A stretch of 41,703 nt of DNA from Candidatus Woesearchaeota archaeon (lineage in GTDB: Archaea > Nanobdellota > Nanobdellia > Pacearchaeales > GW2011-AR1), in assembly GCA_964430085.1 (NCBI GenBank), contig CAYSES010000002.1, positions 1 through 41,703 on the forward strand, in the 5' to 3' direction. Positions 2,100 through 15,958 of the stretch are shown piece by piece. Numbering within the stretch: the first letter of the stretch is position 1; each line of letters opens with the position of its first letter. The position numbers and the translations under genes are program-made. Below the pieces are notes generated by a model. That model was given only the letters and a program-made list of their open reading frames with translations. It had not been told where the DNA came from and searched no databases.

Positions 2100-2152
2100 A
2101 TAAAAAGAATCTATAGATAGTTTATAAAGATTATTTGACTATTAGCTATATC

Positions 2153-2608
2153 TTAGAGAATACTAAACTTAGTAAGGAAGATAAATAAATCTACAAATAA
2201 AAAGATTACAAAAATAGACGTTTCTATTAATCCGCCTGTTTTAATTTTTCCTTTTATCCTTTTTTTAACAGGATAAAAAGGTTTAATCCCTTTAATTGTA
2301 AAGCTATCTAAAATTAAATGCAATGAATAACCAAAAACAAAAGGGAGTAGAATCTCTTTAAAAAACAATAGAATAAAAAAGGAAACTAAAAAAAGAAAGG
2401 TAAAACTATGGATTATTCCGCGATGTTTCATAAAAAAATTAAAAATTCTAAACAATTTTATTTTTCCTATTTTTGAAAATTTTGTATCAATATCGGGGAT
2501 TAGTGTAGAAAGCAAAGAAACTGGTAAAAAAAGAAAGGGATTATGGATATACGAAAAAAATAACAGAATAAAAAACAGGCCTATTATCAGGTGTGTCCTA
2601 AAAAGCAT
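2153..2608 (-). CDS. membrane-bound metal-dependent hydrolase, YdjM/DUF457-like
   Basis: Polytopic 151-aa protein with the family pattern: N-terminal TH, IPDID, HRGIIHS and HLILDSFT. Confidence 0.6.
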   Translation of the reverse strand: MLFRTHLIIGLFFILLFFSYIHNPFLFLPVSLLSTLIPDIDTKFSKIGKIKLFRIFNFFMKHRGIIHSFTFLFLVSFFILLFFKEILLPFVFGYSLHLILDSFTIKGIKPFYPVKKRIKGKIKTGGLIETSIFVIFLFVDLFIFLTKFSIL

Positions 2609-2609
2609 G

Positions 2610-3554
2610 CTATTTCTCTAATTCTTTAATTAATAGATCCGGATTTACTTCTTCAATATTTTCTATTATAAATTCAGGTGTATTAAACAAACGGTTATTC
2701 CTAACTGTTCCTGAAAAAAACATTTCCTTACCCAATAAATTTGCTCTTTGATTTGCTAATTCTTCCAAATTTTCAAGTTCAGTCAATCCAAGAGCTGAAA
2801 CATTCTTATGAAATGCTACTGTTCTTATTGTTTCTGTTCCATCATCAATAACTACATTTATTAAAGATCTTTTTTCTTCTACAATTTTCCCATGATCCGG
2901 GCATATGTAACCATTATCTTCAGGATTAACTTTCTTCCCGCAAGTAGGGCAAACATAAAAAAATCTTGGCTCAAATGACTGGACAATAAATGCTCTTATT
3001 TTTACATTATCAGAATTTTTAAGTTCAGAAATATTTTTTTCTCTGAAAACTTTTTCTGTTTTAATTTCATCCATCTTTTCATTTGTAGGTTTTATTTGAG
3101 AAAAACTTCCAAGATGCAATTCATTATCCCTCATACTCCCGTTTGAGATTTCCACAACAACTCCTGGAGCAATCTTTCCTTCTTCAATGAGGCCTATATG
3201 ATTTGTATCCCATAAAACGACTCTTACATTTGAAGTTTCATCCGCTATAAATAAATTTACAACTTTTCCTTCATCTCCTTTCTTAGTTTTAAAAGTTCTT
3301 ACCGGAGAAACATTTATTATTTTCCCAGAAACATTAACTTTCCTCATCCCAGGAAGTAATTCTTCTATCTTTAATTTTTCATTATCAAAAGAAATTCCAA
3401 GTTCCGCAGCGATTACTTGTGCTGCACCTTCTTTACTGATTAAACCAGAAAGTTTTGCACGTTTAGCTTCTACTCTTCTCTCGATTTCTTCTTTTTCTAA
3501 TCCAGATATTTTAGAAATCTTTGTAATTATCCTATCATAATTTTCTTCAGGCAT
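2610..3554 (-). CDS. rpa: replication protein A (ssDNA-binding; OB folds plus Zn ribbon)
   Basis: N-terminal helical ISKISGLEKEEIERRVEAK...GAAQVIAAELGI, OB-fold-like repeats, and a C4-type ribbon CPTCGKKV...CPDHG. Confidence 0.8.
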   Translation of the reverse strand: MPEENYDRIITKISKISGLEKEEIERRVEAKRAKLSGLISKEGAAQVIAAELGISFDNEKLKIEELLPGMRKVNVSGKIINVSPVRTFKTKKGDEGKVVNLFIADETSNVRVVLWDTNHIGLIEEGKIAPGVVVEISNGSMRDNELHLGSFSQIKPTNEKMDEIKTEKVFREKNISELKNSDNVKIRAFIVQSFEPRFFYVCPTCGKKVNPEDNGYICPDHGKIVEEKRSLINVVIDDGTETIRTVAFHKNVSALGLTELENLEELANQRANLLGKEMFFSGTVRNNRLFNTPEFIIENIEEVNPDLLIKELEK

Positions 3555-3643
3555 TTATCGAAAAACAAACAGGTATTTTTAAGTATTTTTATTCAAAAAA
3601 TCTAAAACAGAAACCTTATAAACAATATATATTCAATTAAAAT

Positions 3644-3916
3644 ATGGGTATTGCAGCAGTAAAAATAAAAATTTTGCCTACTTCGCCAGAAGTAGATCTT
3701 GAAAAACTTAAGGAACAAGCAAAAACAATTATAGAAAAAACAGGGGGGAAGAATTGTAATTTTGAAGAAGAGCCTATTGCATTTGGGTTAAAAGCATTAA
3801 TTGCATTTTTTGCTTGGCCTGAAGAATTGGAACTTGAAAGTTTGGAAAATTCTCTTAATAAGATAGAAGAAGTAAGTTCAGTACAGGTTATCGATATGAG
3901 ACGGGCTTTTGGATAA
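3644..3916 (+). CDS. translation elongation factor aEF-1 beta
   Basis: 90 aa starting MGIAAVKIKILPTSPEVDLEKL, the typical archaeal EF-1beta size and N-terminus. A TATA-like cttataaa lies about 22 nt upstream of the ATG. Confidence 0.85.
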   Translation: MGIAAVKIKILPTSPEVDLEKLKEQAKTIIEKTGGKNCNFEEEPIAFGLKALIAFFAWPEELELESLENSLNKIEEVSSVQVIDMRRAFG

Positions 3917-3976
3917 AAAACAGCGATATGTCAAAAAAGCAATAATTTTATTAATTCTTTTACAATTTAGATATTA

Positions 3977-4585
3977 ATGTTATCACAAGAAGAAACAGAT
4001 GAAATAAAACAGAAGATTATTTCTCATATAGAATCTACATTTCCTGAAGAACAAAAAAGTTCAGCGATTAATCAAATTAAATCAATGAATCATGAAGAAT
4101 TTGAAAATTTTTTAAAAAGAAATAATCTCATAAAAAATGAGAATCCAGAACAACCTGAAACTGAGTGTGTCTTTTGTTCTATTGCATCTAACAAAATCAA
4201 TACTTGCATACTAGAAGAAAATAAAGATGCTGTTGCCGTCCTGGATATAAATCCTGTCTCAAAAGGACATACTTTAGTAATTTCAAAAAAGCATACAGAC
4301 ACAGTGGGTAAAGATATACTTGCCTTTGCAAATGATGTTGCTCAGAAGATAAAGAAAAAATTAAACCCAACCAAAATAGAAATTACAAGATCAAAATTAT
4401 TCGGGCATGAGGTTATCAATCTAATTCCAGTTTATAAAAATGAAAATATTAACTCAGAAAGGCACCACGCAAGTATGGAAGAGCTTGAACAAGTAAAAAA
4501 AGAATTAAAAGAAATTAAAAAAATTCTAAAACCGAAAACAGAAAAACTAAAAGATCACGTTTGGTTACCAAAAAGGATTCCATAA
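3977..4585 (+). CDS. HIT-family protein with N- and C-terminal extensions and a divergent histidine triad
   Basis: HIT core CVFCSIASNK...AVAVLDINPVSKGHTLVISKKH. The H-x-H-x-H-x-x position reads GHEVINLIP. Confidence 0.7.
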   Translation: MLSQEETDEIKQKIISHIESTFPEEQKSSAINQIKSMNHEEFENFLKRNNLIKNENPEQPETECVFCSIASNKINTCILEENKDAVAVLDINPVSKGHTLVISKKHTDTVGKDILAFANDVAQKIKKKLNPTKIEITRSKLFGHEVINLIPVYKNENINSERHHASMEELEQVKKELKEIKKILKPKTEKLKDHVWLPKRIP

Positions 4586-5410
4586 ACTTATATTAAAGAA
4601 AATTAAAAAGGCAAAAATAATCAAGCTGATAAGAAAAACTGGTGAAAAAGGAACTCCATTCCTTATCCTTACCTCTCTATATTTTTTGGATAGTTCTTTT
4701 ATTTCTTTTTTTGTGACTCCATCCCATTTAGCTTTTATTATTTTTTTCCCTATCTTAACATCTGAATAAAGCCAATCTCCTTCCCTTAAATATTTGGTTT
4801 TTATCTTTTTAACCATACATGCTTCATCAATCGCTTTGGATGCTATGTACAAGTAAGAAACAAAAAAGACAAACAATCCAAAAATGAAAAAAGTTTTTTC
4901 TAAAAACCCCAAAGATAAAAAGATTACACTGAAAAATAAGATAAAGCACATGAATCTCTTTTTTCTTTTTAATTGATTTGAAAGTTGTTTTCTAAAGGCT
5001 TTAAAATTTCTTATGCAAAGAATAAAACTTGTTGTAATTAAATAAACGAATCCTATAATTAAAAAAAGAAACAAGAAATTAAAAAAAAGTTTTACATTTA
5101 AAGATAAACTGGAATATATCGGAAGGATTGCTCCAAGCGAGATCATCAATTTAGCATCTCCCCCTGCAAAAATTCTTCCATAATAGAATAAATTTCCTAT
5201 GATGAAAAAAATTCCAAAACCGATTATACCACTGTAGAAAAAAGAAAATCCTCCCCCATTAAACAAAGAATAAAAAAATCTAAAACCTAAAGCGAATATT
5301 ACCAAAGAAAAATTTAGCCAATTAGCAATTTCCCTTGTTCTTATATCCTGTATTACAGCAAAGGTTATGTACACTAAAGCTAATATCCATAAAAAGATTA
5401 CCTCATACAT
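4565..5410 (-). CDS. archaeal prepilin/preflagellin peptidase (A24 family, PibD/FlaK-like)
   Basis: Polytopic protein with both catalytic Asp motifs (VIQDIRTREI and FAGGDAKLM). It is the last gene of the pilus operon. Confidence 0.8.
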   Translation of the reverse strand: MYEVIFLWILALVYITFAVIQDIRTREIANWLNFSLVIFALGFRFFYSLFNGGGFSFFYSGIIGFGIFFIIGNLFYYGRIFAGGDAKLMISLGAILPIYSSLSLNVKLFFNFLFLFLIIGFVYLITTSFILCIRNFKAFRKQLSNQLKRKKRFMCFILFFSVIFLSLGFLEKTFFIFGLFVFFVSYLYIASKAIDEACMVKKIKTKYLREGDWLYSDVKIGKKIIKAKWDGVTKKEIKELSKKYREVRIRNGVPFSPVFLISLIIFAFLIFFNISLWNPFW

Positions 5411-5440
5411 AAAAGGTAATACAAATTTAAATTTATAAAA

Positions 5441-5563
5441 CTATTTTGTTTTTTTAGGAAGATTCATTGTTCTCTGAATTCCACCTATTTTATATGGATG
5501 TTTTTTCTTCTCTCTTTTTTTATCTTTTTTCTTTTTCCTATTCTGAGAACAAGCATAATCCAT
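5441..5563 (-). CDS. 40-aa highly basic micro-ORF (MDYACSQNRKKKKDKKREKKKHPYKIGGIQRTMNLPKKTK)
   Basis: Hand-translated and absent from the ORF track. The ATG lies 1 nt after the stop of the upstream pilin-like gene, and TAG is at 5441-5443. No homology recognised. Confidence 0.3.
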   Translation of the reverse strand: MDYACSQNRKKKKDKKREKKKHPYKIGGIQRTMNLPKKTK

Positions 5564-5564
5564 T

Positions 5565-6017
5565 TTAAGAATTAATAATACATTTTTGGCCTTCTTCTAA
5601 ATCATTAGCCAATATGCTAACATCATATTTTCCAGATTCCAGATTCTTAACTCCAGTCTTACTATTAATTATTATATCCCCACAAGCTAGATTGCATTTA
5701 ATAGAAGGACATTCTGGAATGTTATATTTGTCAAATGCTGATATACTTGCCATAACAATACAACTAGTTTTTACTTCAAGATTATCTTCATTAGATCTCA
5801 AGGTTCTTTCTGCAGAGCAAAAACTATATTCTTGCCCCAAACCACATGTAGTCTGACAATCCTCTTTGATAGAATCAACATTAGAAGGACTGATTAATTT
5901 CTTAAGAGGATTCCACCCAAGAGCAAATCCTAAAATTAAAACAACCAAGATAATAACTCCTAAAATAAGAAGAATAAGTGTATTTGTACTTAATCCCTGC
6001 CCCCTTTTATTTAACAT
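5565..6017 (-). CDS. pilin-like protein with class III signal peptide, Cys-rich
   Basis: MLNKRGQG followed by the hydrophobic helix LSTNTLILLILGVIILVVLILGF. 9 Cys in the roughly 110-aa extracellular part. Confidence 0.65.
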   Translation of the reverse strand: MLNKRGQGLSTNTLILLILGVIILVVLILGFALGWNPLKKLISPSNVDSIKEDCQTTCGLGQEYSFCSAERTLRSNEDNLEVKTSCIVMASISAFDKYNIPECPSIKCNLACGDIIINSKTGVKNLESGKYDVSILANDLEEGQKCIINS

Positions 6018-6060
6018 ATTTAATATATGATTATTTTCTTTAAAAATGTTTTTATCTAGT

Positions 6061-6552
6061 TTAAGAATTTAGAAGTTTATACTCTCCCTTACTTTCTCTG
6101 TCGGGGCTATATTTATCAAACCATTTATTTATTTTTTTGATTATCTTTGGTTTTAGGTTTTGTATTTTATAAAATTCGCTTGGGGAGATAATCCTTAATC
6201 CTCTTTCCTTATAAAAATTATAATCTTCTTTATCTCCAAATCTAAGATATACATTTTTCCCCATTAAGATATCATCAATAGGATCAAACCTTATTCCCAT
6301 ATCAATGCAAGTTTCTTTTTTGAAAAAATTAAATTTGTTTACTTCTGTTGGGAAACTTCCGTCTAACCATACCCATTTAGAACATTCACAAACTTGCATT
6401 AAGGTATCATAAGCCATCTGTGACTTAGGATTAATAACATTATATTTTAGAGGAGTTAATTTTAATGTTGGTTTTTGTGTAAATTTTTTATTTAATGTAT
6501 TCATTAAATACCAACAAAAAAACTTTTTAAAAAGATTATGGTTCTCCTTCAT
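6061..6552 (-). CDS. hypothetical soluble protein inside the pilus operon
   Basis: 163-aa ORF with no TM segment or signal. The ATG at 6552 overlaps the upstream gene by 17 nt. An alternative ATG lies at 6504 (MNTLNKK). Confidence 0.5.
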   Translation of the reverse strand: MKENHNLFKKFFCWYLMNTLNKKFTQKPTLKLTPLKYNVINPKSQMAYDTLMQVCECSKWVWLDGSFPTEVNKFNFFKKETCIDMGIRFDPIDDILMGKNVYLRFGDKEDYNFYKERGLRIISPSEFYKIQNLKPKIIKKINKWFDKYSPDRESKGEYKLLNS

Positions 6553-7354
6553 ATTCAGCAGAAAAAGAAATTACTTCTTCAGTCCAAAATAAGAACCCTT
6601 GTGTATCTCTCTTTTCAAAATAATTTCCGCTAATTTGTTTTAGAGCGTTGTATCTTTGACTTATCTCTTCAACAAAATTATCTTGTGCAAAAAGAACATT
6701 ATCACAGCCCCATCCGTTATATCCCCTTAAAGCAGCTTCCCATTCAGAGTAAAGAATATTTTTATTTGAACATCCCTGAAAAACTTTTCCATTTTTGTAC
6801 ATATTATAATCTTCTTTTAAGATTTGAGCACCGATTTCAATATTAAGGTGGGGGTTATTAATTAATTCAGTCTTGCATTTATCTTTATCAGAGGGTAATC
6901 CATAATTTCCGCAATGGATCAGATTTATTTGCATCAGCCCAATAGAACTACTGCTGGCAGCATTAGCCTTGCAGGCTGATTCTTGCATCATTAACGCAGC
7001 TAACAACAGAGGATCATATATCCCATTTTTTGATGCTGATTCAACTATAAAATTGGCATAAGAATCACATTCATCCCCACAATAACAATTCCGGTTGATT
7101 ATGGAAGTTTTTTTTGCATAAGCAAGAGCATTCTTAACCATTACCAAAGGATCTCTAGCATTAATTCCTGTTTGTTTCTCATAAAAATAATTTTCTTCTA
7201 CTTGGGAGTTTAATTTTTTTATGATATTCACGCCAACAAAAGAATCTCTGGCTCTAAGAGTAGATAAAAAAAAACTAATTAGAGCTAATGTACAAACCAA
7301 GATAATACCAATTACCAAGATTGTTATAGAAATGTCTCCTTTTTTATTTTTCAT
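6536..7354 (-). CDS. class III signal peptide fused to a GH23 (SLT) lytic transglycosylase domain
   Basis: N-terminus MKNKKG + DISITILVIGIILVCTLALISFFL. SLT motifs occur in order: MMQESACKANA (catalytic E-S), SSIGLMQIN, AALRGYNGWG. Confidence 0.8.
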   Translation of the reverse strand: MKNKKGDISITILVIGIILVCTLALISFFLSTLRARDSFVGVNIIKKLNSQVEENYFYEKQTGINARDPLVMVKNALAYAKKTSIINRNCYCGDECDSYANFIVESASKNGIYDPLLLAALMMQESACKANAASSSSIGLMQINLIHCGNYGLPSDKDKCKTELINNPHLNIEIGAQILKEDYNMYKNGKVFQGCSNKNILYSEWEAALRGYNGWGCDNVLFAQDNFVEEISQRYNALKQISGNYFEKRDTQGFLFWTEEVISFSAEYEGEP

Positions 7355-7616
7355 CTTCTTTTAAGATGTTGTCAATTATCTCTTTACCCCTGTTATCATC
7401 CAGTTGATGTGCAAATGAAGTTTTTTCTGCTAATAAATCTACATTCTGTTCAGAATTAGGCAAGGGTAAATTCTCAACATTTATTGATTTAACTTTTGAC
7501 ATTAAAAATGTAATATAAATAAAAATCATCAATATCCCAATTATAACAATAGTTGCAACTACCCAAGAGATTGTTTCTCCAACTTGCGCTTTTTTATTTA
7601 ATTTATAATTGTACAT
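7344..7616 (-). CDS. small pilin-like protein (class III signal peptide-like)
   Basis: MYNYKLNKKA + QVGETISWVVATIVIIGILMIFIYITFLM. 11-nt overlap with the downstream gene. Confidence 0.55.
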   Translation of the reverse strand: MYNYKLNKKAQVGETISWVVATIVIIGILMIFIYITFLMSKVKSINVENLPLPNSEQNVDLLAEKTSFAHQLDDNRGKEIIDNILKEDEK

Positions 7617-8133
7617 TTTTCTCAGTCTTCCTTACAACCGCCAAAATTTTGATTATATATTGATTATTTACATCATCAAGAGAATAAAATTTCTTTTCAT
7701 TACATTTTGATAGTCTCTCTTCTTCCTTATTTTCTTGTAATGCACAACTGGTAACCCACCGGTTATCCCCGGCATCAATTTCAAGCAATGTATTTTCTAA
7801 ATCTTCTGGTTTATAAAAATCAACCTTAATATAATACTGTTCATCTTTCCATTCGCTTGAATTAAAGATTAAATGGCATTCTTCCAAAAATTCCTTTCCT
7901 GTTTTATCAATACCTTCACCATTAGAAATTATATCTGTGTTTATCCTCCCTCCGTAAGAAATGCAATTTGCAATTTGGTTAATTAACAAGTCACTTTCTG
8001 TTTCCCTAATATCATACGGAGTTCCATAAAAAATATAGACCATAGCAAAAATAGCCCCCGCTACAATAATTAAGATTGCAAACCAATATACAGATATAAC
8101 TTTGTCGCCCCTCTTATTTGGTATGTATTTCAT
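7603..8133 (-). CDS. pilin-like protein (class III signal peptide)
   Basis: MKYIPNKRG + DKVISVYWFAILIIVAGAIFAMVYIFYG. 14-nt and 4-nt overlaps with its neighbours. Confidence 0.6.
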   Translation of the reverse strand: MKYIPNKRGDKVISVYWFAILIIVAGAIFAMVYIFYGTPYDIRETESDLLINQIANCISYGGRINTDIISNGEGIDKTGKEFLEECHLIFNSSEWKDEQYYIKVDFYKPEDLENTLLEIDAGDNRWVTSCALQENKEEERLSKCNEKKFYSLDDVNNQYIIKILAVVRKTEKNVQL

Positions 8134-8519
8134 TTGTAATTGTTTATTTTGATAATATAATTTTTCTCAGGGTAAATATCAGGATAAGCAGTAACATCAA
8201 CGTCATTAAAAAAAGAATATGTATACCCGCTTTTATCGCTCAGGCGCACAGTGACTGAGTTTCCTTCTATTTTTATTATTTCATCTCTTTTTAATCCGTT
8301 TTTCTCAGCCAAATCCATTGCATCAGCCATGTTCAATTTAAGTTCCATTACTGGACGCGCTGCATCAACTAATAATGCAATGTTTTTTGCATAACTTTGT
8401 TCAAGTAAAACAGCACCGTTGCCTTGTCTAAATAAAAATAAAACAAGTATTGAAATAAAAACTATATTCAATACGATAAAAACTACATTCTCAAGCAAAA
8501 TCGCTCCCTTTTTATTCAT
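8130..8519 (-). CDS. pilin-like protein (class III signal peptide)
   Basis: The ATG at 8519 gives MNKKG + AILLENVVFIVLNIVFISILVLFLF, matching the sibling genes. A longer ATG at 8540 is also possible. Confidence 0.65.
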   Translation of the reverse strand: MNKKGAILLENVVFIVLNIVFISILVLFLFRQGNGAVLLEQSYAKNIALLVDAARPVMELKLNMADAMDLAEKNGLKRDEIIKIEGNSVTVRLSDKSGYTYSFFNDVDVTAYPDIYPEKNYIIKINNYK

Positions 8520-8553
8520 CTTAATAAAAAAGAATACCATCTACAAAACCAAT

Positions 8554-9411
8554 TTATGCAAGAGTTTTAATTGACCCGCATTTTAATTTATCAAAGTCAG
8601 CAGAATTTGCTTCAATTATCGCTGGTGAAAGGTAATCCTGTCCAGATTCCCCTTTCACAGTTGTTCCAATTACAGGACCTCCAGTTCCTCCGATAATTGC
8701 TCCTGCAATCAAACCTGCAGGACCTGCAACGAGACCTCCAAGTATCCCTCCTGCTATAGCCCACTCTTGGGAACCTACATCACTGAAAATCCCCATAATA
8801 ACATAATACTGTTTTTCAAAATTTATTTTTTCAAATTCAGCCGTGCCAGATGTCAAAGAGTCTTCTATTGATTGTACATCTTGTATACCTGAAATATAAT
8901 TTAAATAAGTTGTATCTTCATCTGGTATTTTTGTATTAGAAAGATATTCATAAAGATTCTTTTGATCTATTTGTCCATCATCAAAAATTTTGGTCATACT
9001 ATCATCAAAAGCTATCTGGGAGCAGATTGAACAATAAAGATTTGAAAAAAATTCAGTTCCAATATAATTTATTTTTCCTTCTCCAAATATCCACCAGCAA
9101 TCAGCCATCTCATCAGCTAAGATTTTATATGTGTCATCTTTTGTTTTAACTTTTTTGATTTCGGCATTTGTTACTTTTTCGCAACTCCCATCTTCAGTAA
9201 TACAAAGATAAGTTGTTTTACAATTCAACGGAGTAGCCTCTTTGGGTAAAACAACAGATCCCCTAGTAACAACGGAATTATGGCATATTTCTTTAGCACT
9301 GGTTTTTCCAAGATTAAGTCTAACTATAAAAAATAAAATAATAGCAAAACTCGCTATGAGAATAATTAAAAGAACTATCTGTTGAGTTGTGATCTCCCCT
9401 TTCTTTTTCAT
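8554..9411 (-). CDS. large pilin-like protein with Cys-rich domain and C-terminal glycine-zipper segment
   Basis: MKKKG + EITTQQIVLLIILIASFAIILFFIV. C-terminal segment WAIAGGILGGLVAGPAGLIAGAIIGGTGGPVIG. Confidence 0.65.
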   Translation of the reverse strand: MKKKGEITTQQIVLLIILIASFAIILFFIVRLNLGKTSAKEICHNSVVTRGSVVLPKEATPLNCKTTYLCITEDGSCEKVTNAEIKKVKTKDDTYKILADEMADCWWIFGEGKINYIGTEFFSNLYCSICSQIAFDDSMTKIFDDGQIDQKNLYEYLSNTKIPDEDTTYLNYISGIQDVQSIEDSLTSGTAEFEKINFEKQYYVIMGIFSDVGSQEWAIAGGILGGLVAGPAGLIAGAIIGGTGGPVIGTTVKGESGQDYLSPAIIEANSADFDKLKCGSIKTLA

Positions 9412-9458
9412 ATAATTAATTGTTTTTTATTGTTAATAAAATTAACTATAAAAAGAAA

Positions 9459-9545
9459 TCATAAAATTCCTATTTGTTTAAGCATAAAATATAATCCTAC
9501 CGCTGCTAATGCAAAAAAAACAATCCATATAATATATTTAATCAT
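9459..9545 (-). CDS. 28-aa single-TM micro-ORF (MIKYIIWIVFFALAAVGLYFMLKQIGIL)
   Basis: Hand-translated and absent from the ORF track. The ATG lies 4 nt after the stop of the upstream pilin-like gene, and TGA is at 9459-9461. Confidence 0.3.
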   Translation of the reverse strand: MIKYIIWIVFFALAAVGLYFMLKQIGIL

Positions 9546-9549
9546 TTCA

Positions 9550-10041
9550 TCAAGATCCATTTTTTTTGATTTCGATAGAACCATCGACATTTTTAATTGA
9601 AATATCAATCCCGTTCTTTTCTATTTTTATCTTTTCAAATTCCTTAAGAGTGGGGAGAACATTACACGAACCTTTTTCGTCACATCTTTTTATTTGCCAA
9701 TCAAACCAATCAGGAAAGACTTCTTCACAAATACATATACAATTTTGCCCAGTACAAAGATTAGGCTTTTTTTTATCTCCAACAAAACTAAAAATAAACC
9801 AATCAGAAGGGTTAGGCACATGAATTCCCTGTTCATTGTACTCCCCCCCATCCGCTATACGATTAATCTCCTTCATAACAATATCTTTTAAACTTGATTC
9901 AGCCTGTTTTATTTTTTCTTCGCCTGTAAACGAGTAATATAACGCAACTAAGAGGTATACTAAAAAAACAATACATATAACTGCAACTATAATCTTAAGA
10001 GTTTCAGAGCTGAGCAAAAATCCTTTTTTATCCTTATTCAT
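9550..10041 (-). CDS. pilin-like protein (class III signal peptide), Cys-rich
   Basis: MNKDKKG + FLLSSETLKIIVAVICIVFLVYLLVALYY. Cys cluster CTGQNCICICEE...RCDEKGSC. Confidence 0.65.
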   Translation of the reverse strand: MNKDKKGFLLSSETLKIIVAVICIVFLVYLLVALYYSFTGEEKIKQAESSLKDIVMKEINRIADGGEYNEQGIHVPNPSDWFIFSFVGDKKKPNLCTGQNCICICEEVFPDWFDWQIKRCDEKGSCNVLPTLKEFEKIKIEKNGIDISIKNVDGSIEIKKNGS

Positions 10042-10093
10042 TCAATTCCCCCCTAATAGGCTTCTCCGTCCTCAAATAACATATTTATCTTCC

Positions 10094-10255
10094 TCATTTT
10101 ATTAATACAACAAAAATTTGTGTAATATCCTCTGGCGAAAGACTTTTAAAAAACTCAATTACTCTATCCTTAAATACAAAAAAAACTCCTGCAACCACAG
10201 CAACAACTACAATAATCCCCAAAATTATTTTAATTAATTGTTCTGTTTCTAACAT
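10094..10255 (-). CDS. 53-aa single-TM membrane protein
   Basis: Hand-translated: MLETEQLIKIILGIIVVVAVVAGVFFVFKDRVIEFFKSLSPEDITQIFVVLIK. Its ATG shares one nucleotide with the upstream stop (TGATG). Confidence 0.4.
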   Translation of the reverse strand: MLETEQLIKIILGIIVVVAVVAGVFFVFKDRVIEFFKSLSPEDITQIFVVLIK

Positions 10256-10407
10256 CATCCCCTCCCAAAAAGACTTTTAATTTTAGCTATGAATCCTTCT
10301 CCAGTTCCCTTAAGGAAAAAAATACTAATCATTATTATTGCTAGGACAGCTAGCCCGATTAATAACCAAGGTAAATATTCTGTAACAATCCCTTTTTTAT
10401 TTTCCAT
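10255..10407 (-). CDS. 50-aa minimal pilin-like protein (class III signal peptide)
   Basis: Hand-translated: MENKKG + IVTEYLPWLLIGLAVLAIIMISIFFLKGTGEGFIAKIKSLFGRG. Same KKG motif as the larger pilin-like genes. Confidence 0.5.
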   Translation of the reverse strand: MENKKGIVTEYLPWLLIGLAVLAIIMISIFFLKGTGEGFIAKIKSLFGRG

Positions 10408-10448
10408 TAAATAAAAAAGATAAAAAGAATTAATAAATCTTTACAAAT

Positions 10449-12626
10449 TTATCCGGTTAAATTTCCCAATACAATTGATGTTAAAAGGAATAATGCAAGA
10501 GTTGCAAACAAAGCAGTTATGACATAAAGCCCGATTCCTTTCTTAAGATTAATTCCTATCTTATTTGTTTCTTCTAATTTATCTTCTCCCGAATTAATTG
10601 TTACAAGGGCTCCGGTTAGGATAAAGATTATTTCTATTAGATAGATTCCAACAACTATTTGAAGAAAATAAGGGGGGATCATTTTTGTTATATCAAAAAT
10701 ATTCAATATAGAACCAAGATTACCAAGTCCTGAAATTGATTCAGTGTTCCCGCTCAATCTTGCTATATCCAATCGTGTAAGTATTGCAGTTATCATAGCT
10801 GCTAACCCCACAACAATTCCAGATAATAAAGGGGCAAGGAAAGTCATATTGCTTTTCATATCAGAGATTATCTCTGCAAGCATGTCTCTCAATCTATTTG
10901 TAATTTTGTTTATGTTTTTTACATATTCAGAAATGCTTATCAGACTAAGAGCTGCAATGTTTAATCCTTTCTTAGCAGATTCTACAAGAATCTTCATACT
11001 TGTTGATATCAAATCAGAAGGATAATATCTTAGTGCTCCTCTTTTCTCATCAAAAATTGCCTGCTCAACTCCCATTCCCATTTGCATGATGTTATAATTA
11101 ACTCTTCTGAAAAAATCTTCAGTCTTTAATCCCTTACTTGATTCTGCTACTTTCCCAAATGCAAGTTCAGGAGGAACACCATTCCCTATTCTATTTCCTA
11201 ATTGAAATAAAGAGTTATTAAATTCAACTTCAAGTTCTTTTGTTTTTTCTCTTTCTTTAATCAATCCTTTTGTTTTTTTGTTAAAAGCGATTGAAAAGAA
11301 TGTTGCAACCCCCAATGTGAAAAAAATTCCGAATATTAATGCGCCTATTCCAAAAGGGCCTATCAGTTTTCCTCCTACATCCTTAAATCCAAATACAGAC
11401 TCATCTCCAAAGACACCTATCCCTAATTCTGAAAAGGTATAATCATGTTTCAATCCAAAAAGACTTGGAATAGGAGTATATTGGAATATCAAAGGCAAAA
11501 TTCCAATTAAAAAAAGAGGAAGACAAATCAAAAAAGCATGAATATAAGGTTTTCTGCTTTTGTATTGAGGATAAAGTGGATTTTTCTCTAAAAGTGAAGT
11601 TTCTCCATATCCTCCAGGTCTCAAAAATAAAATTTTATCTGTAAGATAAAAAACAAAGAAAGGAATTATAAGATTGAATAATACAAGAACATGATACCAT
11701 TTAAGTAAATCTCCAATCATTGCAGATGCTAATGGGAGTAATGCTAATCCAAGAGTTGGCAAAACAACCCCCAACATATAAACATTTGTAAGAGGACTTC
11801 TAACATTGTGACTAAATTTCAACATCTTGTCATAGACACCATCAAGAACCACTTGAAGGGATTTTTCAAGAGTAACAATTCTCTTAGCATTATCTGGTTC
11901 AAACAAACTGCTTTCGATTAAATGGAAGGATTCTATAAACTCTACAGAATAATCTCTCCAAGTATTAAGATAATCATCCAAACTTTCTTTTATTGTAGAA
12001 AATTTTCCTACCTCTACATTATAAAAAACTTTTTTAAAATCCAAGGCAAGAGGATATTGCAAATGCTGGGATGCAAAAGATATTGCTTTTTCCAAATTAG
12101 GCGTGTGTCTCATATAAACTACTATATACAAAATAGCGGGAACCATTTGAGATGATGCTTTAAGCCTCCATTTATTTGCCAATCGCGCAGGATAACCATT
12201 CGTAAAATAAAAAAGAAATAAACCAAAAATAATCACAAGGAAAAAAAAGAAAAAAGGAAATTCTTCAAAGCCACCTTTAAACAAGGCAATCGCAACAGAT
12301 ACTAAAAGTCCAAGCATAAAAACTCCAATAAAAACCATTATACTAAGAGTGGCAGGTTGCCATGGTTCAAGGTCAAGATGGGCAATATCTAATTGTCTTT
12401 TAATTTTTGCGGCATCTTTTTCAGGTACTTTTAATTTTAATGTATTTCCAAGGGTGCGACATAATTTTTCATACCTTGTTAATTCGGGGGCAAGCTCTCC
12501 TTTAAATTTTGTATAACTTTGACTATAATTAACATTTTCTACATTAGTAGTTTTTATACTTTTTTCAATTCGGGCGGCATGTCTTTTAAGAATTTCATCT
12601 ATATTTGGTTTTTTATAGGGTTCCAT
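10449..12626 (-). CDS. type IV pilus/archaellum-type assembly platform membrane protein (FlaJ/TadC/PilC-like)
   Basis: 725-aa polytopic protein with two cytoplasmic T2SSF-like helical domains (PLALDFKKVFYNVEVGKFSTIKESLDDY and GVPPELAFGKVAE...VNYNIMQMGMGVEQAI), each followed by TM bundles. Same operon as the ATPase. Confidence 0.7.
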   Translation of the reverse strand: MEPYKKPNIDEILKRHAARIEKSIKTTNVENVNYSQSYTKFKGELAPELTRYEKLCRTLGNTLKLKVPEKDAAKIKRQLDIAHLDLEPWQPATLSIMVFIGVFMLGLLVSVAIALFKGGFEEFPFFFFFLVIIFGLFLFYFTNGYPARLANKWRLKASSQMVPAILYIVVYMRHTPNLEKAISFASQHLQYPLALDFKKVFYNVEVGKFSTIKESLDDYLNTWRDYSVEFIESFHLIESSLFEPDNAKRIVTLEKSLQVVLDGVYDKMLKFSHNVRSPLTNVYMLGVVLPTLGLALLPLASAMIGDLLKWYHVLVLFNLIIPFFVFYLTDKILFLRPGGYGETSLLEKNPLYPQYKSRKPYIHAFLICLPLFLIGILPLIFQYTPIPSLFGLKHDYTFSELGIGVFGDESVFGFKDVGGKLIGPFGIGALIFGIFFTLGVATFFSIAFNKKTKGLIKEREKTKELEVEFNNSLFQLGNRIGNGVPPELAFGKVAESSKGLKTEDFFRRVNYNIMQMGMGVEQAIFDEKRGALRYYPSDLISTSMKILVESAKKGLNIAALSLISISEYVKNINKITNRLRDMLAEIISDMKSNMTFLAPLLSGIVVGLAAMITAILTRLDIARLSGNTESISGLGNLGSILNIFDITKMIPPYFLQIVVGIYLIEIIFILTGALVTINSGEDKLEETNKIGINLKKGIGLYVITALFATLALFLLTSIVLGNLTG

Positions 12627-12699
12627 TTTCCTCTTCTTTAACTAATAAAACAAAAATAGAATTAATAAATGTTTAGAAAAAATTAAGAAATTTTATTTT

Positions 12700-13056
12700 T
12701 TAAAGAGCCTTGGAATTATTCAACGGGGTTATTTCGTTTTCTTTTTCTTTAAAATTTAATCTATCAAATAATGAATGTTTATAAGTAAATTCATTCTCTT
12801 CATAAAGGTGGTTACGATTCTTGTCCTCTTGGGTCGCCATATGTTCCCATATTATACTTCCCCTATCGTTAACACCTATTGGAAGATTAAAAAATCTTAT
12901 ATCTCCGATATTATCATTATCAGTATCATATTCAGTAACAAGAAAAGGTCCAGCAGGATATGTAAAAAGGATTCTATATTCAGTGATATTGGGTAATGTC
13001 TTACATCCAAATAAAAAAGGAAGTGCTCCAATTAATAACAAATTTCTTAATTTCAT
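12700..13056 (-). CDS. putative lipoprotein
   Basis: Signal peptide with a lipobox-like LFGC (MKLRNLLLIGALPFLFGC). Asp-rich loop YDTDNDNIGD. ATGA overlap with the upstream gene. Confidence 0.5.
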   Translation of the reverse strand: MKLRNLLLIGALPFLFGCKTLPNITEYRILFTYPAGPFLVTEYDTDNDNIGDIRFFNLPIGVNDRGSIIWEHMATQEDKNRNHLYEENEFTYKHSLFDRLNFKEKENEITPLNNSKAL

Positions 13057-13576: not shown

Positions 13577-15859
13577 CTAAAATTTCTTTTTCTTAATTTC
13601 ATCATTTAACCACTTCTGCCATGCAGGAAACACTCTTTCTCCAAGAGGAAGCCCTATCTCTTGTCTAATACTATCAGAGATTTCATGAAATAAATGATTA
13701 GATAATGTATTAAATGGAGCTTCTAAAATTTGATTGTAGCCTGTTTTCTGTGCAACTTCAGTAATCTCTTTTTTTATCTTACCCCTTAAAAGGATATTGT
13801 CATAAATAGCATCCCAATTTCCTGCCCACCCTTTTACATTAGAAGCTATTCCTTTTATAATCTCACTGTCTCCATTAATTAAATCATCACTGGGTTTCAG
13901 ATCATCTTTTTCTATATCATAATTAAGAAGGTCAACAAATCCCTTCTCTAATTGGGGATCATCTTTCCAATGTTTTCTTACTTCTGAAAGTTGGACCACT
14001 CTTCTCATTGAATGCAACCCATCAGCAGTCTTTATAGGATTACACACCACAATTATATCAGTGGCTTTAAAACTAGTCGCCGGAACTTCCAAATCATTTA
14101 CAACTCTATCAAAAACGCCATAAGGGCTTGCGCCATGTATTGTCCCAGCCACAACATTTGCCAAAGCACCAACCCTCATTGCTTCATAAAGCGCCTTAGC
14201 TTCAGTACTTCTTACTTCACCGATGATTAAACAACTATCTCCCAGTCTCAAACTTGTCCTGATTCCGTCATCTGCAGAAACTTCAGTCGTAGTTTTTAAT
14301 AATGCAGATCGAACTTTCATCCTAAGGATATCATATTCCAGTTTTCTCAAAGACTCAACAGGCAATTCTAAAGAATCCTCAATAACAATAATTCTGTTTT
14401 TAGGAACAATCTCAAGCATCAAGCTTCCAAGCAAAGAAGTTTTTCCTGAACTTCTTGTTCCTGCAACCAAGAGTGTTCGTGCTCCATCAATAAGAAAACT
14501 TAATAATCCTGCAGTAAAAGAATTCAACATTCCATTTTTCACAAATAAGGGCAATGTCCAGGGATCTTCTCTGTGCCTTCTAATAGCATATGCTAATCCG
14601 TCAGGCGAAAGGGGATTTTGTATTATAGCAATTCTCGCTCTCATTTTTCCGACTTCTAATTGGGTGTCTAGTATAGGATTTGCTTCGTCCAACGGTCTTC
14701 CAGAAATCATTCTGAACTTTGCTGCCCATGAATCAATATCTGCTTGACTAGGAAGAATGTTTGTAGAACACTCTCCATAATCTTGATGCCTAACAAAAAT
14801 GTTAGTCATAGGAATTGGAGCATTCAAAAAAATGTCCTGTAATTTCTTATCTTGTAAAATAACTTCAACAAGCCCAAACCCAATTGTTTGTCTGACAAGA
14901 ATCGTAGCAAGTTTATTTAAATCAAGATAATTCAATTTTATTTGTTGTGATTGAGCTAAATCTTGGAGTAGGTCTTTTGCAATGTTAAAAAAAACATTTC
15001 TTATTCTTTCAATATCAGTAAATTCCTCTGCTTTTGGTTGATGTTCAATTAAAACACCTCTCGCCAAATTCAAAAGCATATTATAATCTTCATCAAGAGA
15101 AGTTTCAGGAGGATTTAAATGATAGACAAATTTTGATTCATCTTTTCTTTTTAAAATTGTAACAATTGAGAGATCATATTTTTCGCCTATTTCATATTGG
15201 TCAATAATTTCAGCATCTTCAGGAAGGTCATAAACTAATCTTGTAAATGTAAAATTAGGGATTACATCTGGTTTGAATATTCTATGATATATTTCTCTGT
15301 CACCTTTTCTGTAATCATCAAAATAAGGAAGAATTGCCTGTATTAGTTTTGTATTTTGCAAAAGAGAAGAGATACGTTCAAGAAAATATACATAACTTTC
15401 TTGATCATTTTTATATTGCACTGAAATTTTATCAAGCAAGATTTTAGCCTGAATAATATCTTTTTTGATTTCAAAATATGCTGCAATAGGATCTTGTCTT
15501 AACAATAATAAAAAAGAAAAAATTTCATTATATCTCTGATTAAAAAATTGGGGATGTGAAGTAACAAGTTTCCCTTGAGAAAGTATTTTTTCTTGTTTAA
15601 GGAAAAAAACATAAAGTTGAGAAATTTCTAATAAAATTGCTGTCTCCTTAAAATCATAATTATAATTTTTTTGTTGAACAAAAATAATTCTTGAAACATT
15701 TGGATTTTCTATTAAGGCATCAACAGTTCTCCCCATTACTTCAGGATAATCAGATAAGTTAGGCACATAAGGCGCTCCGAGATAATCAATATAAAGAACA
15801 TCTTCTCCGCCTTCTCGTCTAACTTCATAAGAATATAATTTTCCCTCTTTATCTGGCAT
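13577..15859 (-). CDS. type II/IV secretion-family ATPase (FlaI/PilB/VirB11-like) with long N-terminal domain
   Basis: Walker A GTRSSGKTS, Asp box RIIVIEDSLEL, Walker B CLIIGEVRS, His box GTIHGAS. The ORF-track start at 15925 is GTG. The first ATG, at 15859 (MPDKEGK), leaves a plausible 99-nt divergent promoter region. Confidence 0.9.
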   Translation of the reverse strand: MPDKEGKLYSYEVRREGGEDVLYIDYLGAPYVPNLSDYPEVMGRTVDALIENPNVSRIIFVQQKNYNYDFKETAILLEISQLYVFFLKQEKILSQGKLVTSHPQFFNQRYNEIFSFLLLLRQDPIAAYFEIKKDIIQAKILLDKISVQYKNDQESYVYFLERISSLLQNTKLIQAILPYFDDYRKGDREIYHRIFKPDVIPNFTFTRLVYDLPEDAEIIDQYEIGEKYDLSIVTILKRKDESKFVYHLNPPETSLDEDYNMLLNLARGVLIEHQPKAEEFTDIERIRNVFFNIAKDLLQDLAQSQQIKLNYLDLNKLATILVRQTIGFGLVEVILQDKKLQDIFLNAPIPMTNIFVRHQDYGECSTNILPSQADIDSWAAKFRMISGRPLDEANPILDTQLEVGKMRARIAIIQNPLSPDGLAYAIRRHREDPWTLPLFVKNGMLNSFTAGLLSFLIDGARTLLVAGTRSSGKTSLLGSLMLEIVPKNRIIVIEDSLELPVESLRKLEYDILRMKVRSALLKTTTEVSADDGIRTSLRLGDSCLIIGEVRSTEAKALYEAMRVGALANVVAGTIHGASPYGVFDRVVNDLEVPATSFKATDIIVVCNPIKTADGLHSMRRVVQLSEVRKHWKDDPQLEKGFVDLLNYDIEKDDLKPSDDLINGDSEIIKGIASNVKGWAGNWDAIYDNILLRGKIKKEITEVAQKTGYNQILEAPFNTLSNHLFHEISDSIRQEIGLPLGERVFPAWQKWLNDEIKKKKF

Positions 15860-15958
15860 GAATAAAAAAGACGTATTAAGTTTAAAATATTTTGTATAAT
15901 TACTTTTATTTGTGTTTATAAACACAACAAATTTAAACTACTTTCACATCACCACTAT

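Follow-up and report, generated by a model that had tools for sequence, protein, structure and literature searches.

SLT domains in DPANN archaea were reportedly first noted by Rinke in 2013 and by Castelle in 2015. VirB1, BfpH, IagB/EtgA and FlgJ are free periplasmic enzymes that carry ordinary Sec signals and open the producer's own sacculus, and phage virion SLT domains (e.g., T7 gp16) are GH23 enzymes carried on the penetration apparatus, where murein is breached from outside. Giant DPANN SLT proteins (fam00969; up to ~3000 aa) were described with the hypothesis that they act on bacterial walls (Castelle et al., 2021; PMC8204110), and such proteins were also reported by Vigneron et al. (2022; PMC9723730). 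In bacteria, modular pilins show many architectures (Raynaud et al., 2021; PMC8179133); in Streptococcus sanguinis, PilB bears a vWA module and PilC a lectin module, and a peptidase module is also on record. The main text of that study mentions neither archaea nor transglycosylases, and a search of 32 kb of its supplementary text for SLT, lysozyme or amidase architectures among bacterial modular pilins returned nothing, an amount of text too small for the absence to be informative. In the Sulfolobus bindosome, functional non-structural proteins bear class III signals and are served by a dedicated PilB/PilC pair and PibD (PMC4371748).

The window analyzed here (41,703 nt; positions 1 to 41,703 of contig CAYSES010000002.1, Candidatus Woesearchaeota archaeon) encodes a 272-aa protein with the same SLT subfamily as the giant proteins, found in the same organisms and open to the same bacterial-wall hypothesis. 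SLT domains of giant proteins of 1000 – 3200 aa (GTDB DPANN) were often 40 – 58% identical to that of the window, with those of 1900 – 3000 aa reaching up to 58%, and giant-borne and pilin-borne domains interleaved in a neighbor-joining tree computed without support values. The giants are multi-domain proteins for which pilin-type signals were not described, whereas the window protein consists, outside its SLT domain, of just the two halves of a mini-pilin-like carrier and is encoded mid-operon in a filament locus. Among the loci retrieved, no giant SLT protein was encoded less than 10 kb from the pilus locus, and no published mention of the pilin-carrier SLT form in a DPANN pilus locus was found. 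With modular bacterial pilins the protein has a common design, a small pilin module bearing a grafted functional module. Those pilins carry the IPR012902 motif and usually a C-terminal extra module; the window protein, in contrast, is archaeal, has no IPR012902 motif, is accompanied by a FlaK/PibD-type A24 peptidase and holds a predicted murein hydrolase inserted in its head. It works like a modular pilin and lies outside the bacterial family as defined. We consider it probable (roughly 0.6) that the gene encodes a modular minor-pilin-like subunit of a type IV pilus-like filament, and that this subunit presents a murein hydrolase, on the filament itself or at its base, against bacterial walls.

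A catalytic domain inserted in a small carrier

The gene occupies 6536..7354 on the minus strand (272 aa, ATG start); the plus-strand translation of this interval was riddled with stops. Its product starts MKNKKGDISITILVIGIILVCTLALISFFL and contains LLAALMMQESACKANA, SSIGLMQIN and AALRGYNGWG, exactly the motifs quoted in the initial annotation, which had identified the protein as a GH23/SLT enzyme. Pfam SLT (PF01464) matched aa 106 – 214 at 54.9 bits (E = 8.1e-15; curated cut-off 21.3), and the identification was borne out by profile and structure comparisons. Homologues of the 272-aa protein fell into 112 clusters, of which the named ones were Pacearchaeota/Nanoarchaeota. The family profile matched MltC, MltE and Slt70 in the PDB; the profile was required, as a single-sequence phmmer search of the 272-aa protein against the PDB returned no match. 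The inserted catalytic module spans 6629..7150 (minus strand; codons 69 – 242), as delimited by pLDDT, Foldseek and motifs, and was modeled by AF2 with pLDDT >90 over most of its length. In Foldseek searches with this model, MltF or MltE alone were returned at E ≤ 1e-3, followed by Slt, MltC, LtgA and g-type lysozyme. The modeled core thus has the lysozyme-like alpha-helical fold and resembles GH23 enzymes and goose-type lysozyme, as the proposed comparison with lytic transglycosylases had anticipated.

Conservation was read from a family alignment of 51 members. Glu125, the Glu of QES and the predicted catalytic acid (GAA codon at 6980..6982, minus strand, read directly), was invariant, with S126 in at least 90% of members, and sits in the last turn of model helix 115 – 126. 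In the profile-to-PDB alignment it fell on the Glu of E. coli MltC 'IMQTES', a residue that is Gln in PDB 4cfo, which we take to be an inactive MltC variant; the catalytic Glu had therefore been placed correctly from the outset. In the GLMQ motif G139 and Q142 were invariant and L140 and M141 reached at least 90%, and in the YNG motif (RGYNGWG) Y212 and G214 were invariant and N213 reached at least 90%. Eight Cys were conserved in the module, five without exception (C92, C96, C148, C160, C195) and three (C90, C128, C217) in at least 90% of the 51 sequences. GH23 has lysozymes and a small number of chitinases among its members, and sequence does not separate their chemistry from that of a lytic transglycosylase; cleavage of the MurNAc-beta-1,4-GlcNAc bond with formation of 1,6-anhydro-MurNAc is a prediction.

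The remainder of the protein is a carrier split by this module. Its N-terminal part (codons 7 – 57; 7184..7336, minus strand) comprises the H-domain and a long alpha-helix equivalent to pilin alpha-1, assigned on the model and on conservation; the AF2 model showed an unbroken helix over residues 6 – 57, and the segment was conserved across the 51-member alignment as DIPITILVIGV...RNSFVGIG.VE.LNSQIEEN.FY. The C-terminal part (codons 243 – 272; 6539..6628, minus strand), GNYFEK...FLFW..EEVISFSAEYEGEP, is a predicted beta-hairpin that aligned with the C-termini of stand-alone carriers (e.g., '...EGFLFWSKEVLLFSVRYQSP' in L102) and in which F264 and S265 were invariant in the same alignment. The pilin architecture of the model, helix plus hairpin, was poorly resolved at the hairpin (pLDDT ~40 – 50). 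Stand-alone proteins of 87 – 136 aa were homologous to both ends of the 272-aa protein; most carrier relatives were of this size and had no SLT, and the length distribution was bimodal for every carrier. A comparable layout, p176[9-71]-SLT-p176[79-174], was found in locus L028. The 272-aa protein is a mini-pilin-like carrier of ~95 aa with an SLT domain inserted, an architecture that is new here, and as in modular pilins a pilin module that also exists alone bears an unrelated grafted module. The SLT carrier is unusually small. For the neighboring p176 carrier an AF2 model (pLDDT 81) consisted of a long N-terminal helix and a four-stranded antiparallel sheet; compared with solved pilins, this model gave no significant structural match (best E = 0.12). 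Its topology is pilin-like, with membership of a known pilin family unsupported at the level of fold.

The positively charged leader MKNKKG (codons 1 – 6; 7337..7354, minus strand) precedes a prepilin-peptidase site predicted before D7 from family conservation and from the published rule for archaeal class III signals, by which a charged residue at -2 is followed by G/A/S at -1 and the site lies ahead of the H-domain (PMC4371748). Characterized sites include KGQV, KAIS, KGIS and RALS (PMC4371748). When these criteria were applied to the N-terminus, MKNKKG↓DISITILVIG... (arrow, predicted site) fitted them with K5 at -2, G6 at -1, D7 at +1 and an uncharged H-domain of 23 residues. A [KR][GA] site directly before the H-domain was found in 93 of 109 Met-starting homologues, and the 16 in which none was recognizable were all truncated fragments or fusions to other carriers that visibly bear KKG/KRG. 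Among the 93, position -1 was G in 80 and A in 13, position -2 was R/K in 75 and position +1 was D in 72. The pilin-type signal proposed in the initial annotation was upheld by these counts. The bacterial N-methylation motif (IPR012902, G↓F/M-T-L-x-E) was absent; the sequence reads KKG↓DISITIL and lacks a Glu at +5. The pilin motifs of Pfam and NCBIfam did not match the SLT protein. The prepilin peptidase of the locus probably cuts after Gly6.

The same data bear on whether the protein is an ordinary N-terminally anchored or Sec-secreted lytic enzyme, possibly a released antibacterial lysin, with a coincidental KKG and a meaningless operon position. Such an account draws on the fact that cleavage is a prediction and that the N-termini of some giant DPANN SLT proteins appear to be of another kind. 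It is very unlikely given that G/A at -1 and K/R at -2 are kept just before the H-domain throughout the family, that no AxA-like site follows the 23-residue H-domain, where the modeled helix instead runs on to residue 57, that the gene begins inside the pilin-like gene upstream of it, and that pilin-sized proteins standing alone in the same locus are homologues of both halves of the carrier.

The filament locus and its archaeal setting

The gene order is ATPase, membrane protein, about eight pilin-like genes, SLT gene and A24 peptidase, with the peptidase and the T2SSE ATPase in one minus-strand cluster, an arrangement kept in L001, L002 and L008. The ATPase (13577..15925, minus strand; 782 aa from the first GTG) was assigned to the type IV filament superfamily by Pfam T2SSE (E = 3.9e-15); its best NCBIfam matches were FlaI, TadA and BasE, all under equivalog cut-offs. 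A polytopic membrane protein of 725 aa (10449..12626, minus strand) follows the ATPase, directly or past 1 – 2 small genes, in all syntenic loci and is 70 – 80% identical across most relatives. Because it had no match in Pfam (E up to 0.1), NCBIfam or a PDB profile search, its putative role as the PilC/FlaJ/TadC-type platform is assigned by position. The A24-family prepilin/preflagellin peptidase (4565..5410, minus strand; FlaK/PibD-like) matched Pfam Peptidase_A24 above cut-off (E = 4.7e-10) and NCBIfam FlaK_Arch below its cut-off (E = 1.3e-11).

Seven neighboring ORFs, all on the minus strand, share the [KR][GA] plus hydrophobic-helix N-terminus. They are p50 (10255..10407; 50 aa; MENKKG↓IVTEY...), p163 (9550..10041; KKG↓FLLSSETLKIIVAV..., site KKG↓FLLS), p285 (8554..9411; KKG↓EITTQQIVLLIILI..., site KKG↓EITT), p136 (8130..8540; likely start internal, MNKKG↓AILLENVVFIVL..., site KKG↓AILL), p176 (7603..8133; KRG↓DKVISVYWFAILIIV..., site KRG↓DKVIS), p90 (7344..7616; KKA↓QVGETISWVVATIVII..., site KKA↓QVGE) and p150 (5565..6017; KRG↓QGLSTNTLILLILGV..., site KRG↓QGLS). 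For p50, 63 homologous ORFs were found in metagenome loci, 22 of them with [KR][GA]xxxEY, and p50 is a candidate major subunit. The start of the SLT gene overlaps the end of p90, the pilin-like gene just upstream, by 11 nt, and the SLT start codon overlaps the p90 stop (ATGAAAAATAA). With pilin-like genes around it, the ATPase and the A24 peptidase flanking it and the order conserved elsewhere, the SLT gene indeed sits mid-operon, as had been proposed. Scans of the whole window for tRNA and Rfam families were empty. A sigma-70 promoter and terminator scan of 4400 – 16100 gave counts at shuffle level (54 vs 55.9 and 5 vs 4.8, respectively), and since these bacterial models are unsuited to archaeal promoters, operon boundaries were not drawn from it.

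The locus is flanked by archaeal genes, RadA/RPA/EF-1beta on one side and DEAD-box helicase, PolD and Cdc6 on the other, and GC content ranged from 0.28 to 0.37 across 1 – 16000 with no step at the locus. The same gene order and housekeeping flank were found in Pacearchaeota/Woesearchaeota contigs of 319 – 652 kb from different samples. Because independent contigs repeat the order and archaeal housekeeping genes lie to either side of it, the contig and locus are not chimeric, which settles a doubt raised in the initial annotation. The context is archaeal and vertically inherited, and Pacearchaeota/Woesearchaeota (DPANN) share the predicted filament locus as a conserved feature.

One further explanation, either an assembly artefact that joined bacterial and archaeal DNA or the recent capture of a transglycosylase from a bacterial pilus locus that simply received an archaeal leader, was weighed on these data. 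A homologous contig, L006, is labeled 'Patescibacteria group bacterium' in NCBI, and a few GTDB matches bear bacterial labels (L034, L046, L054); L006, however, carries an archaeal-type locus and was probably mislabeled through a binning error. An exhaustive search of 1.84 billion representatives returned 649 relatives of the SLT subfamily in all at E ≤ 1e-3, and the best 150 of these 649 fell into small pilin-type and giant size classes. The domain belongs to a DPANN-restricted subfamily without close bacterial relatives and is seated in a native archaeal carrier, and the suggestion that it was a captured bacterial gene refitted with an archaeal signal found no support. On GC content, flanks, synteny and the relatives search, this explanation was rejected as having almost no chance of being correct. 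An IMG/VR scan for viral relatives gave one weak 27% match and no real relative, and a phage-lysin origin of the domain was dropped on this result. Mature T7 core proteins were among the weak Foldseek matches (rank 50); between the T7 gp16-type domain and that of the window there is no sequence relationship beyond the fold.

Hydrolase modules on several carriers

The SLT subfamily was found in seven carriers, SLT_N, p136, p176, p150, p163, p285 and p90, so that, besides the carrier of the window protein, six or more pilin-like carriers of this locus hold the subfamily in other lineages, which is new here. It was carried by p136 in eight loci (L006, L018, L039, L050, L051, L124, L134, L144), by p176 in five (L004, L008, L022, L026, L028), by p150 in L002, L034 and L119, by p163 in L048, L154 and P0156, by p285 in P0234 and by p90 in P0180. 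The p136-borne domain of L006 was 63% identical to that of the window, closer than members with the same architecture as the window protein, such as P0084 at 44%. In a neighbor-joining tree of SLT domains the L006 domain nested within the SLT_N clade; as this tree has no support values, it was weighed only together with the identity figures.

A second enzyme, Amidase_2 (N-acetylmuramoyl-L-alanine amidase), was found inserted in the p176 carrier (L006, L018, L098, L144) and in the p90 carrier (L013), with E values of 1e-20 to 3e-25. The Amidase_2-carrier fusion was represented by at least 39 full-length clusters, with KG-type N-termini in 35 of 39. Both enzymes occurred together in one metagenome-sample locus (L144) and in three GTDB loci (L006, L013, L018). 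The MurNAc-L-Ala bond, at which Amidase_2 cuts, is specific to murein, and by its domain assignment Amidase_2 would be a second murein-specific enzyme in two carriers, also new here.

The frequency of these modules was taken from 34 complete loci sampled through the 725-aa membrane protein. Only 10 of the 34 carried a hydrolase module, which makes the enzyme a filament accessory and not a core part, and in most loci the carrier stands alone without an enzyme. About 70% of otherwise identical loci have no hydrolase at all, so the enzyme is not required for filament assembly. These figures bear on self-envelope remodeling, in which the SLT domain would open a polymer of the archaeon's own envelope for filament assembly in the manner of VirB1, BfpH, IagB or FlgJ. 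The window enzyme is, like these, a GH23 enzyme encoded inside a filament or secretion cluster, and its best NCBIfam match was the T3SS transglycosylase IagB, below threshold (E = 1.5e-4; 21.3 bits vs a cut-off of 208). Scores for MltC (19.2 vs 375) and EmtA (18.4 vs 233) were also sub-threshold, and no equivalog-level NCBIfam match to a specialized bacterial transglycosylase reached its cut-off. It differs from the VirB1 type in being dispensable for the locus, in being fused to structural subunits and not a free periplasmic protein, and in belonging to an organism that is not expected to have murein. To our knowledge no archaeon makes murein, and the backbone of pseudomurein is different. 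The specificity of the partner module Amidase_2 for murein likewise counts against an action on the archaeon's own envelope. Murein transglycosylases have been described as normally absent in Archaea (Castelle et al., 2021; PMC8204110). Self-remodeling is on these grounds highly improbable.

Apparatus, substrate and purpose

Under the preferred reading, a subunit that presents a murein hydrolase on a filament, the precursor would enter the membrane via its N-terminal class III-type signal and be cut after Gly6 (KKG↓D) by the A24 peptidase of the locus. The protein would then be held by its long hydrophobic alpha-1 helix, either in the membrane or within the core of a filament that the neighboring ATPase and platform protein would assemble. 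The head of the ~95-aa carrier, enlarged by a disulfide-rich and catalytically intact GH23 lytic transglycosylase, would keep the enzyme outside the cell, on the filament or at its foot, where it would cut bacterial murein along its MurNAc-GlcNAc backbone, whether in a cell serving as partner, host or prey or in the debris of walls. Incorporation of the SLT protein may be at the tip, at the base or in the membrane only, and both its murein substrate and its biological purpose are inferred. The case for a filament-borne device acting on bacterial walls is strengthened because the SLT domain has been grafted onto several different pilin-like carriers, because Amidase_2 modules occupy the same carriers and because the carrier exists alone in most loci. 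Taken together, these observations suggest that these DPANN archaea display enzymes that degrade cell walls on a filament at their surface, with bacteria as the target. Against this, we know of no bacterial partner of these archaea.

Substrate and anchoring would be common to a nutritional explanation, from which the preferred reading differs in purpose alone. There, proteins would be retained at the surface in bindosome-like fashion, much as Sulfolobus retains sugar-binding proteins, either by a membrane anchor or as part of a short pseudopilus-like array, and the enzyme would digest free murein or dead sacculi for GlcNAc, anhydro-MurNAc and peptides, with no attack on a living partner. The Sulfolobus bindosome offers a precedent, with non-pilin proteins that bear pilin-type signals and a dedicated PilB/PilC pair (PMC4371748), and DPANN genomes are those of auxotrophic scavengers (PMC8204110). 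The weak match of the locus ATPase to the BasE model and the accessory distribution of the hydrolase modules point in the same direction. Bindosome and window proteins are both functional proteins with a class III-type signal, predicted in the case of the window. Bindosome subunits, however, are full-size substrate-binding proteins that gained a signal, whereas the window protein is a genuine small carrier with an inserted enzyme, and the carriers of the locus are pilin-sized and in most loci enzyme-free. Grafting onto seven carriers of one filament locus further suggests that the filament itself matters. We regard the nutritional explanation as unlikely, though deserving of some weight.

The preferred reading of a filament-presented murein hydrolase can be taken further, more tentatively. 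The minor subunits may be interchangeable 'tool holders' for GH23 and Amidase_2, on a filament that attaches to living bacteria and locally breaches their sacculus. This is a speculative extension that we would put forward as possible and do not favor outright. If true, no molecular machine for episymbiosis or predation by an archaeon on a bacterium would have been described earlier, and DPANN lineages whose hosts are bacteria and not archaea could be told by a genomic marker.

Pacearchaeota and Woesearchaeota rank among the most abundant uncultured archaea of groundwater and sediment, and SLT genes have been the main earlier hint that some of them associate with bacteria, in reports that concerned giant orphan proteins without mechanistic context. 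Here that catalytic module, together with a second murein-specific enzyme, is tied to structural subunits of a conserved filament locus, and the hint becomes a concrete, testable model with an apparatus, an enzyme location and a processing peptidase. The 'modular pilin' principle comes to include archaea as well as bacteria, and enzymes that degrade cell walls as well as adhesion modules. The distinction between hydrolase-bearing and plain pilus loci gives a simple genomic classifier for predicting bacterial association. The SLT domain is small (about 175 aa), disulfide-rich and readily expressed for direct assay.

Lytic transglycosylase domain and pilin-type N-terminus

The open reading frame placed by the initial annotation at 6536-7354 was present on the minus strand and comprised 272 codons, and both the quoted N-terminus (MKNKKGDISITILVIGIILVCTLALISFFL) and the three SLT signatures were read in its translated product. 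Pfam PF01464 scored 54.9 bits (E=8.1e-15) over residues 106-214, where its curated threshold is 21.3. As a single-sequence query the protein had no match in the PDB; a profile of 51 family members (alignment A1) matched E. coli MltC, MltE and Slt70 there. In the profile comparison Glu125, the proposed catalytic residue and invariant in A1, aligned with the Glu of MltC 'IMQTES', a position occupied by Gln in PDB entry 4cfo, which we take to be an inactive MltC variant. Across the 51 sequences the motifs ES, GLMQ and (A)YNG varied little or not at all, and eight Cys were conserved, five of them without exception and the other three in 90% or more of the sequences. An AlphaFold2 model was built on A1 and had pLDDT >90 over most of residues 69-242; it places Glu125 in the final turn of helix 115-126. 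Its significant Foldseek matches in the PDB were GH23 lytic transglycosylases only; MltF and MltE were significant and were followed by Slt, MltC, LtgA and goose-type lysozyme. On the basis of the motifs, Glu125, the modelled fold and the conserved Cys, the SLT domain looks catalytically intact and extracellular.

Archaeal class III signals carry G, A or S at -1 and a charged residue at -2, with the processing site before the H-domain, and characterised sites include KGQV, KAIS, KGIS and RALS (PMC4371748). The N-terminus, earlier read as a pilin-type signal, fits this published rule (K5-G6/D7 followed by 23 uncharged residues), and a single helix runs on to residue 57 in the model. A class III-type site was found in 93 of 109 Met-starting family matches, with G (80) or A (13) at -1, K or R at -2 in 75 and D at +1 in 72. 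All 16 exceptions without a recognised site were truncated fragments or fusions to other carriers (pilin-like proteins bearing the module), and KKG or KRG was visible in these too. The class III call is a rule-based pass with support from conservation and context rather than a predictor score. That the N-terminus is an ordinary anchor with no pilin-type role is very improbable, being contradicted by this conservation and by the synteny of the locus.

The pilus locus and its relatives

The locus runs from 15925 to 4565 with every gene on the minus strand. It begins with a T2SSE-type ATPase (13577-15925, -), for which the best NCBIfam resemblances were FlaI, TadA and BasE. With the first GTG as its start the ATPase has 782 residues; its conserved T2SSE/FlaI core begins only at about residue 300, leaving a long N-terminal extension. 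Two small ORFs separate it from a 725-aa polytopic membrane protein (10449-12626, -); within this interval a 118-aa ORF (12700-13056, -) starts with MKLRNLLLIGALPFLFGC, a lipobox-like signal, and had no homologue in the fetched loci. The membrane protein was 70-80% identical in most relatives (alignment A2), far above the conservation of the pilin-like genes, and had no match in Pfam, NCBIfam or the PDB. It may represent an unrecognised family of platform proteins in the PilC/FlaJ position.

Next come a 50-aa ORF (p50; 10255-10407, -) and a 54-aa ORF, also on the minus strand. The former, a candidate major subunit, reads MENKKG/IVTEYLPW..., and the G-xxx-EY spacing occurred in 22 of 64 homologues; it resembles the prepilin motif of bacterial Flp/Tad systems, G/xxxxEY. 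Five pilin-sized minus-strand ORFs, named by length (p163, p285, p136, p176 at 7603-8133 and p90 at 7344-7616), then lead to the SLT gene, the start of which falls inside the p90 stop region. Directly downstream, with a 17-nt overlap, lies a 163-aa ORF (6061-6552, -) for which no signal peptide, family match or homologue in 169 scanned fetched loci was found; it is either a lineage-specific operon insertion or not a real gene. It is followed by the pilin-sized p150 (-) and, at the end of the locus, by an A24 prepilin/preflagellin peptidase (4565-5410, -). Seven small ORFs of the locus open with [KR][GA] and a hydrophobic helix, and overlaps of 4-17 nt occur between several pairs of genes. The carriers of this locus had no match among curated families or solved structures.

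GC content in the window was compositionally smooth, mostly 0.28-0.33, and archaeal genes were present (RadA, an RPA-like protein, EF-1beta, both PolD subunits and Cdc6/Orc1). Those SLT-protein homologues that were named came from MAGs of Pacearchaeota and Nanoarchaeota. Homologues at 55% (L001, 652-kb contig) and 44% identity (L002, 319 kb), both from other samples, were found in the same gene order, which extended into a HIT/EF-1beta/RPA/YdjM/RadA/NDK flank; the order was likewise kept in a third locus (L008). Because order and flank recur on independent contigs, the chimera that the initial annotation had named as a possible objection was excluded, and the gene order shows a vertically inherited locus. 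Chimerism or recent capture is hardly credible, being contradicted by conservation and synteny. Some relatives of the protein also occurred on bacterial-labelled contigs (L006/L007, 'Patescibacteria group bacterium'; L034; L046; L054), of which L006 carries a full archaeal-type pilus locus (membrane protein and p50, p54, p163 and p285 homologues) and L034 carries p150- and window-type carriers with the end of a membrane-protein gene; the bacterial labels probably reflect mistakes in binning or taxonomy.

Insertion, exchange and frequency of murein hydrolase modules

In several loci, stand-alone proteins of 87-136 aa matched the N-terminal 65 residues of the window protein, and their C-terminal ~25 residues matched its last 30 (for example L102, '...KNRRGDIPITILVIGV...RNSFVGIGMVDEINMRAEEKIF...EGFLFWSKEVLLFSVRYQSP'). 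Among loci sampled independently of SLT, this window-type carrier was 87-136 aa long in 27 of 36 occurrences and SLT-bearing in 6. Since the stand-alone carriers match both ends of the window protein, the SLT module (residues ~66-242) is, on sequence comparison, an insertion into a small protein native to the locus, placed after its alpha-1 helix and before its terminal hairpin.

The SLT subfamily was surveyed in 80 GTDB loci and in the best 150 of 649 relatives from an exhaustive search of 1.84 billion representatives. Woesearchaeota, Pacearchaeota and Nanoarchaeota accounted for nearly all labels of the GTDB loci; a few read Aenigmatarchaeota or Iainarchaeum, and a handful were doubtful bacterial labels. 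Hosts comprised the window-type carrier, fusions to p136-, p150-, p163-, p285- and p90-like proteins, insertions into p176-like proteins (p176[9-71]-SLT-p176[79-174] in L028) and several unrecognised KKG-type carriers. Each carrier was bimodal in length, plain versus expanded. The best 150 relatives fell into small pilin-type and giant size classes, and in giant proteins of 1000-3200 aa the domain lay near the C-terminus. A p136-borne SLT in L006 was 63% identical to the window domain, against 44% for some members of the same architecture as the window protein, and nested in the window-type clade of a neighbour-joining tree without support values, which indicates that the module has moved within the locus. 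Two SLT-bearing pilin-like genes, on window-type and p150-type carriers, were present in L002 (10001-10828 and 11988-12983) and in L119.

Numbers of relatives were 649 at E<=1e-3, 224 at 1e-10 and 55 at 1e-30. Bacterial SLT clusters are expected to be far more numerous than this, and we therefore regard this subfamily as lying well apart from mainstream bacterial SLTs. No recent bacterial donor was visible in the exhaustive search, and no viral relatives of the subfamily were found.

SLT-free expanded carriers were scanned and a second enzyme, Amidase_2 (N-acetylmuramoyl-L-alanine amidase), was found. It was inserted in p176-like proteins (L006, 5948-7126; L018, 7053-8141) and in a p90-like protein directly upstream of a window-type SLT gene (L013, 2369-3358), the E values ranging from 9e-20 to 3e-25. 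Two metagenome loci (L098 and L144) likewise had the domain inserted in pilin-like carriers. The p176-amidase fusion was represented in the database by at least 39 full-length clusters, some named Nanoarchaeia, with KG-type N-termini in 35 of 39; in the window itself p176 and p90 are plain. Since both SLT and Amidase_2 occur on carriers of the locus, two enzymes with bonds specific to bacterial murein are, by annotation, grafted onto subunits of one filament system.

For frequency estimates the membrane protein was used as bait in metagenome contigs, groundwater and sediment samples among them. In fetched loci, ORFs were called naively and retrieval was pattern-based, biased toward close relatives. 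Of the 34 loci in which the downstream region was complete, SLT was found in 9, amidase in 2, either in 10 and both in 1. One contig (Ga0208641_1000003; L004/L132) carried an SLT-bearing pilin cluster ~30 kb from its membrane-protein gene; pilin clusters can therefore be detached from assembly genes, and 10/34 is a lower bound per genome. In these loci the hydrolases accompany a conserved filament as accessories and are not required for its construction.

Proposed role of the SLT subunit and a putative replication origin

The reading we prefer, at a probability of roughly 0.6, is that of a class III-processed, anchored SLT subunit cutting the murein of a bacterial partner or prey. The precursor would be inserted via Sec and cut after Gly6 by the A24 peptidase of the locus, the alpha-1 helix would anchor it in the membrane or filament core, and the exposed SLT head would cut the foreign wall. 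Bacterial modular pilins are thought to sit at the filament tip (PMC8179133), and by analogy placement at the tip or in a priming complex would be an appealing possibility. In the chief alternative the enzyme and its anchoring are as above, but the subunits form a bindosome-like array at the surface and salvage debris of walls; we regard it as possible, at rather low probability. A role on the cell's own wall is very improbable, as murein is generally absent in archaea and the module is dispensable and fused to structural subunits.

Earlier publications describe large murein-like SLT proteins from Pacearchaeota and Woesearchaeota and put forward an action of such DPANN proteins on bacterial walls (PMC8204110, PMC9723730, PMC10936187); these papers mention no pilin-type signal, pilin-like carrier or filament operon for SLT. 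Pilin-borne SLT is not mentioned in a census of archaeal T4P (PMC4858521) or in a 2026 survey of 208 complete Nanobdellota genomes (bioRxiv 10.64898/2026.05.13.725050), and full-text searches of the open-access literature returned no account of such a signal, carrier or operon for DPANN SLT. The window protein is akin to DPANN SLT enzymes on the one hand and to modular pilins on the other, both already known.

Elsewhere in the window, an AT-rich gap upstream of cdc6 (36673-37887; GC 0.22 in 38001-39000) contains two direct copies of CACTTTAATTTCCTATGGAAAT, one at 37896 and one at 37996, and part of it again in inverted orientation at 38118-38139. The repeats look like ORB-type origin-recognition boxes and, given their position beside Cdc6/Orc1, 37896-38139 is probably a replication origin.
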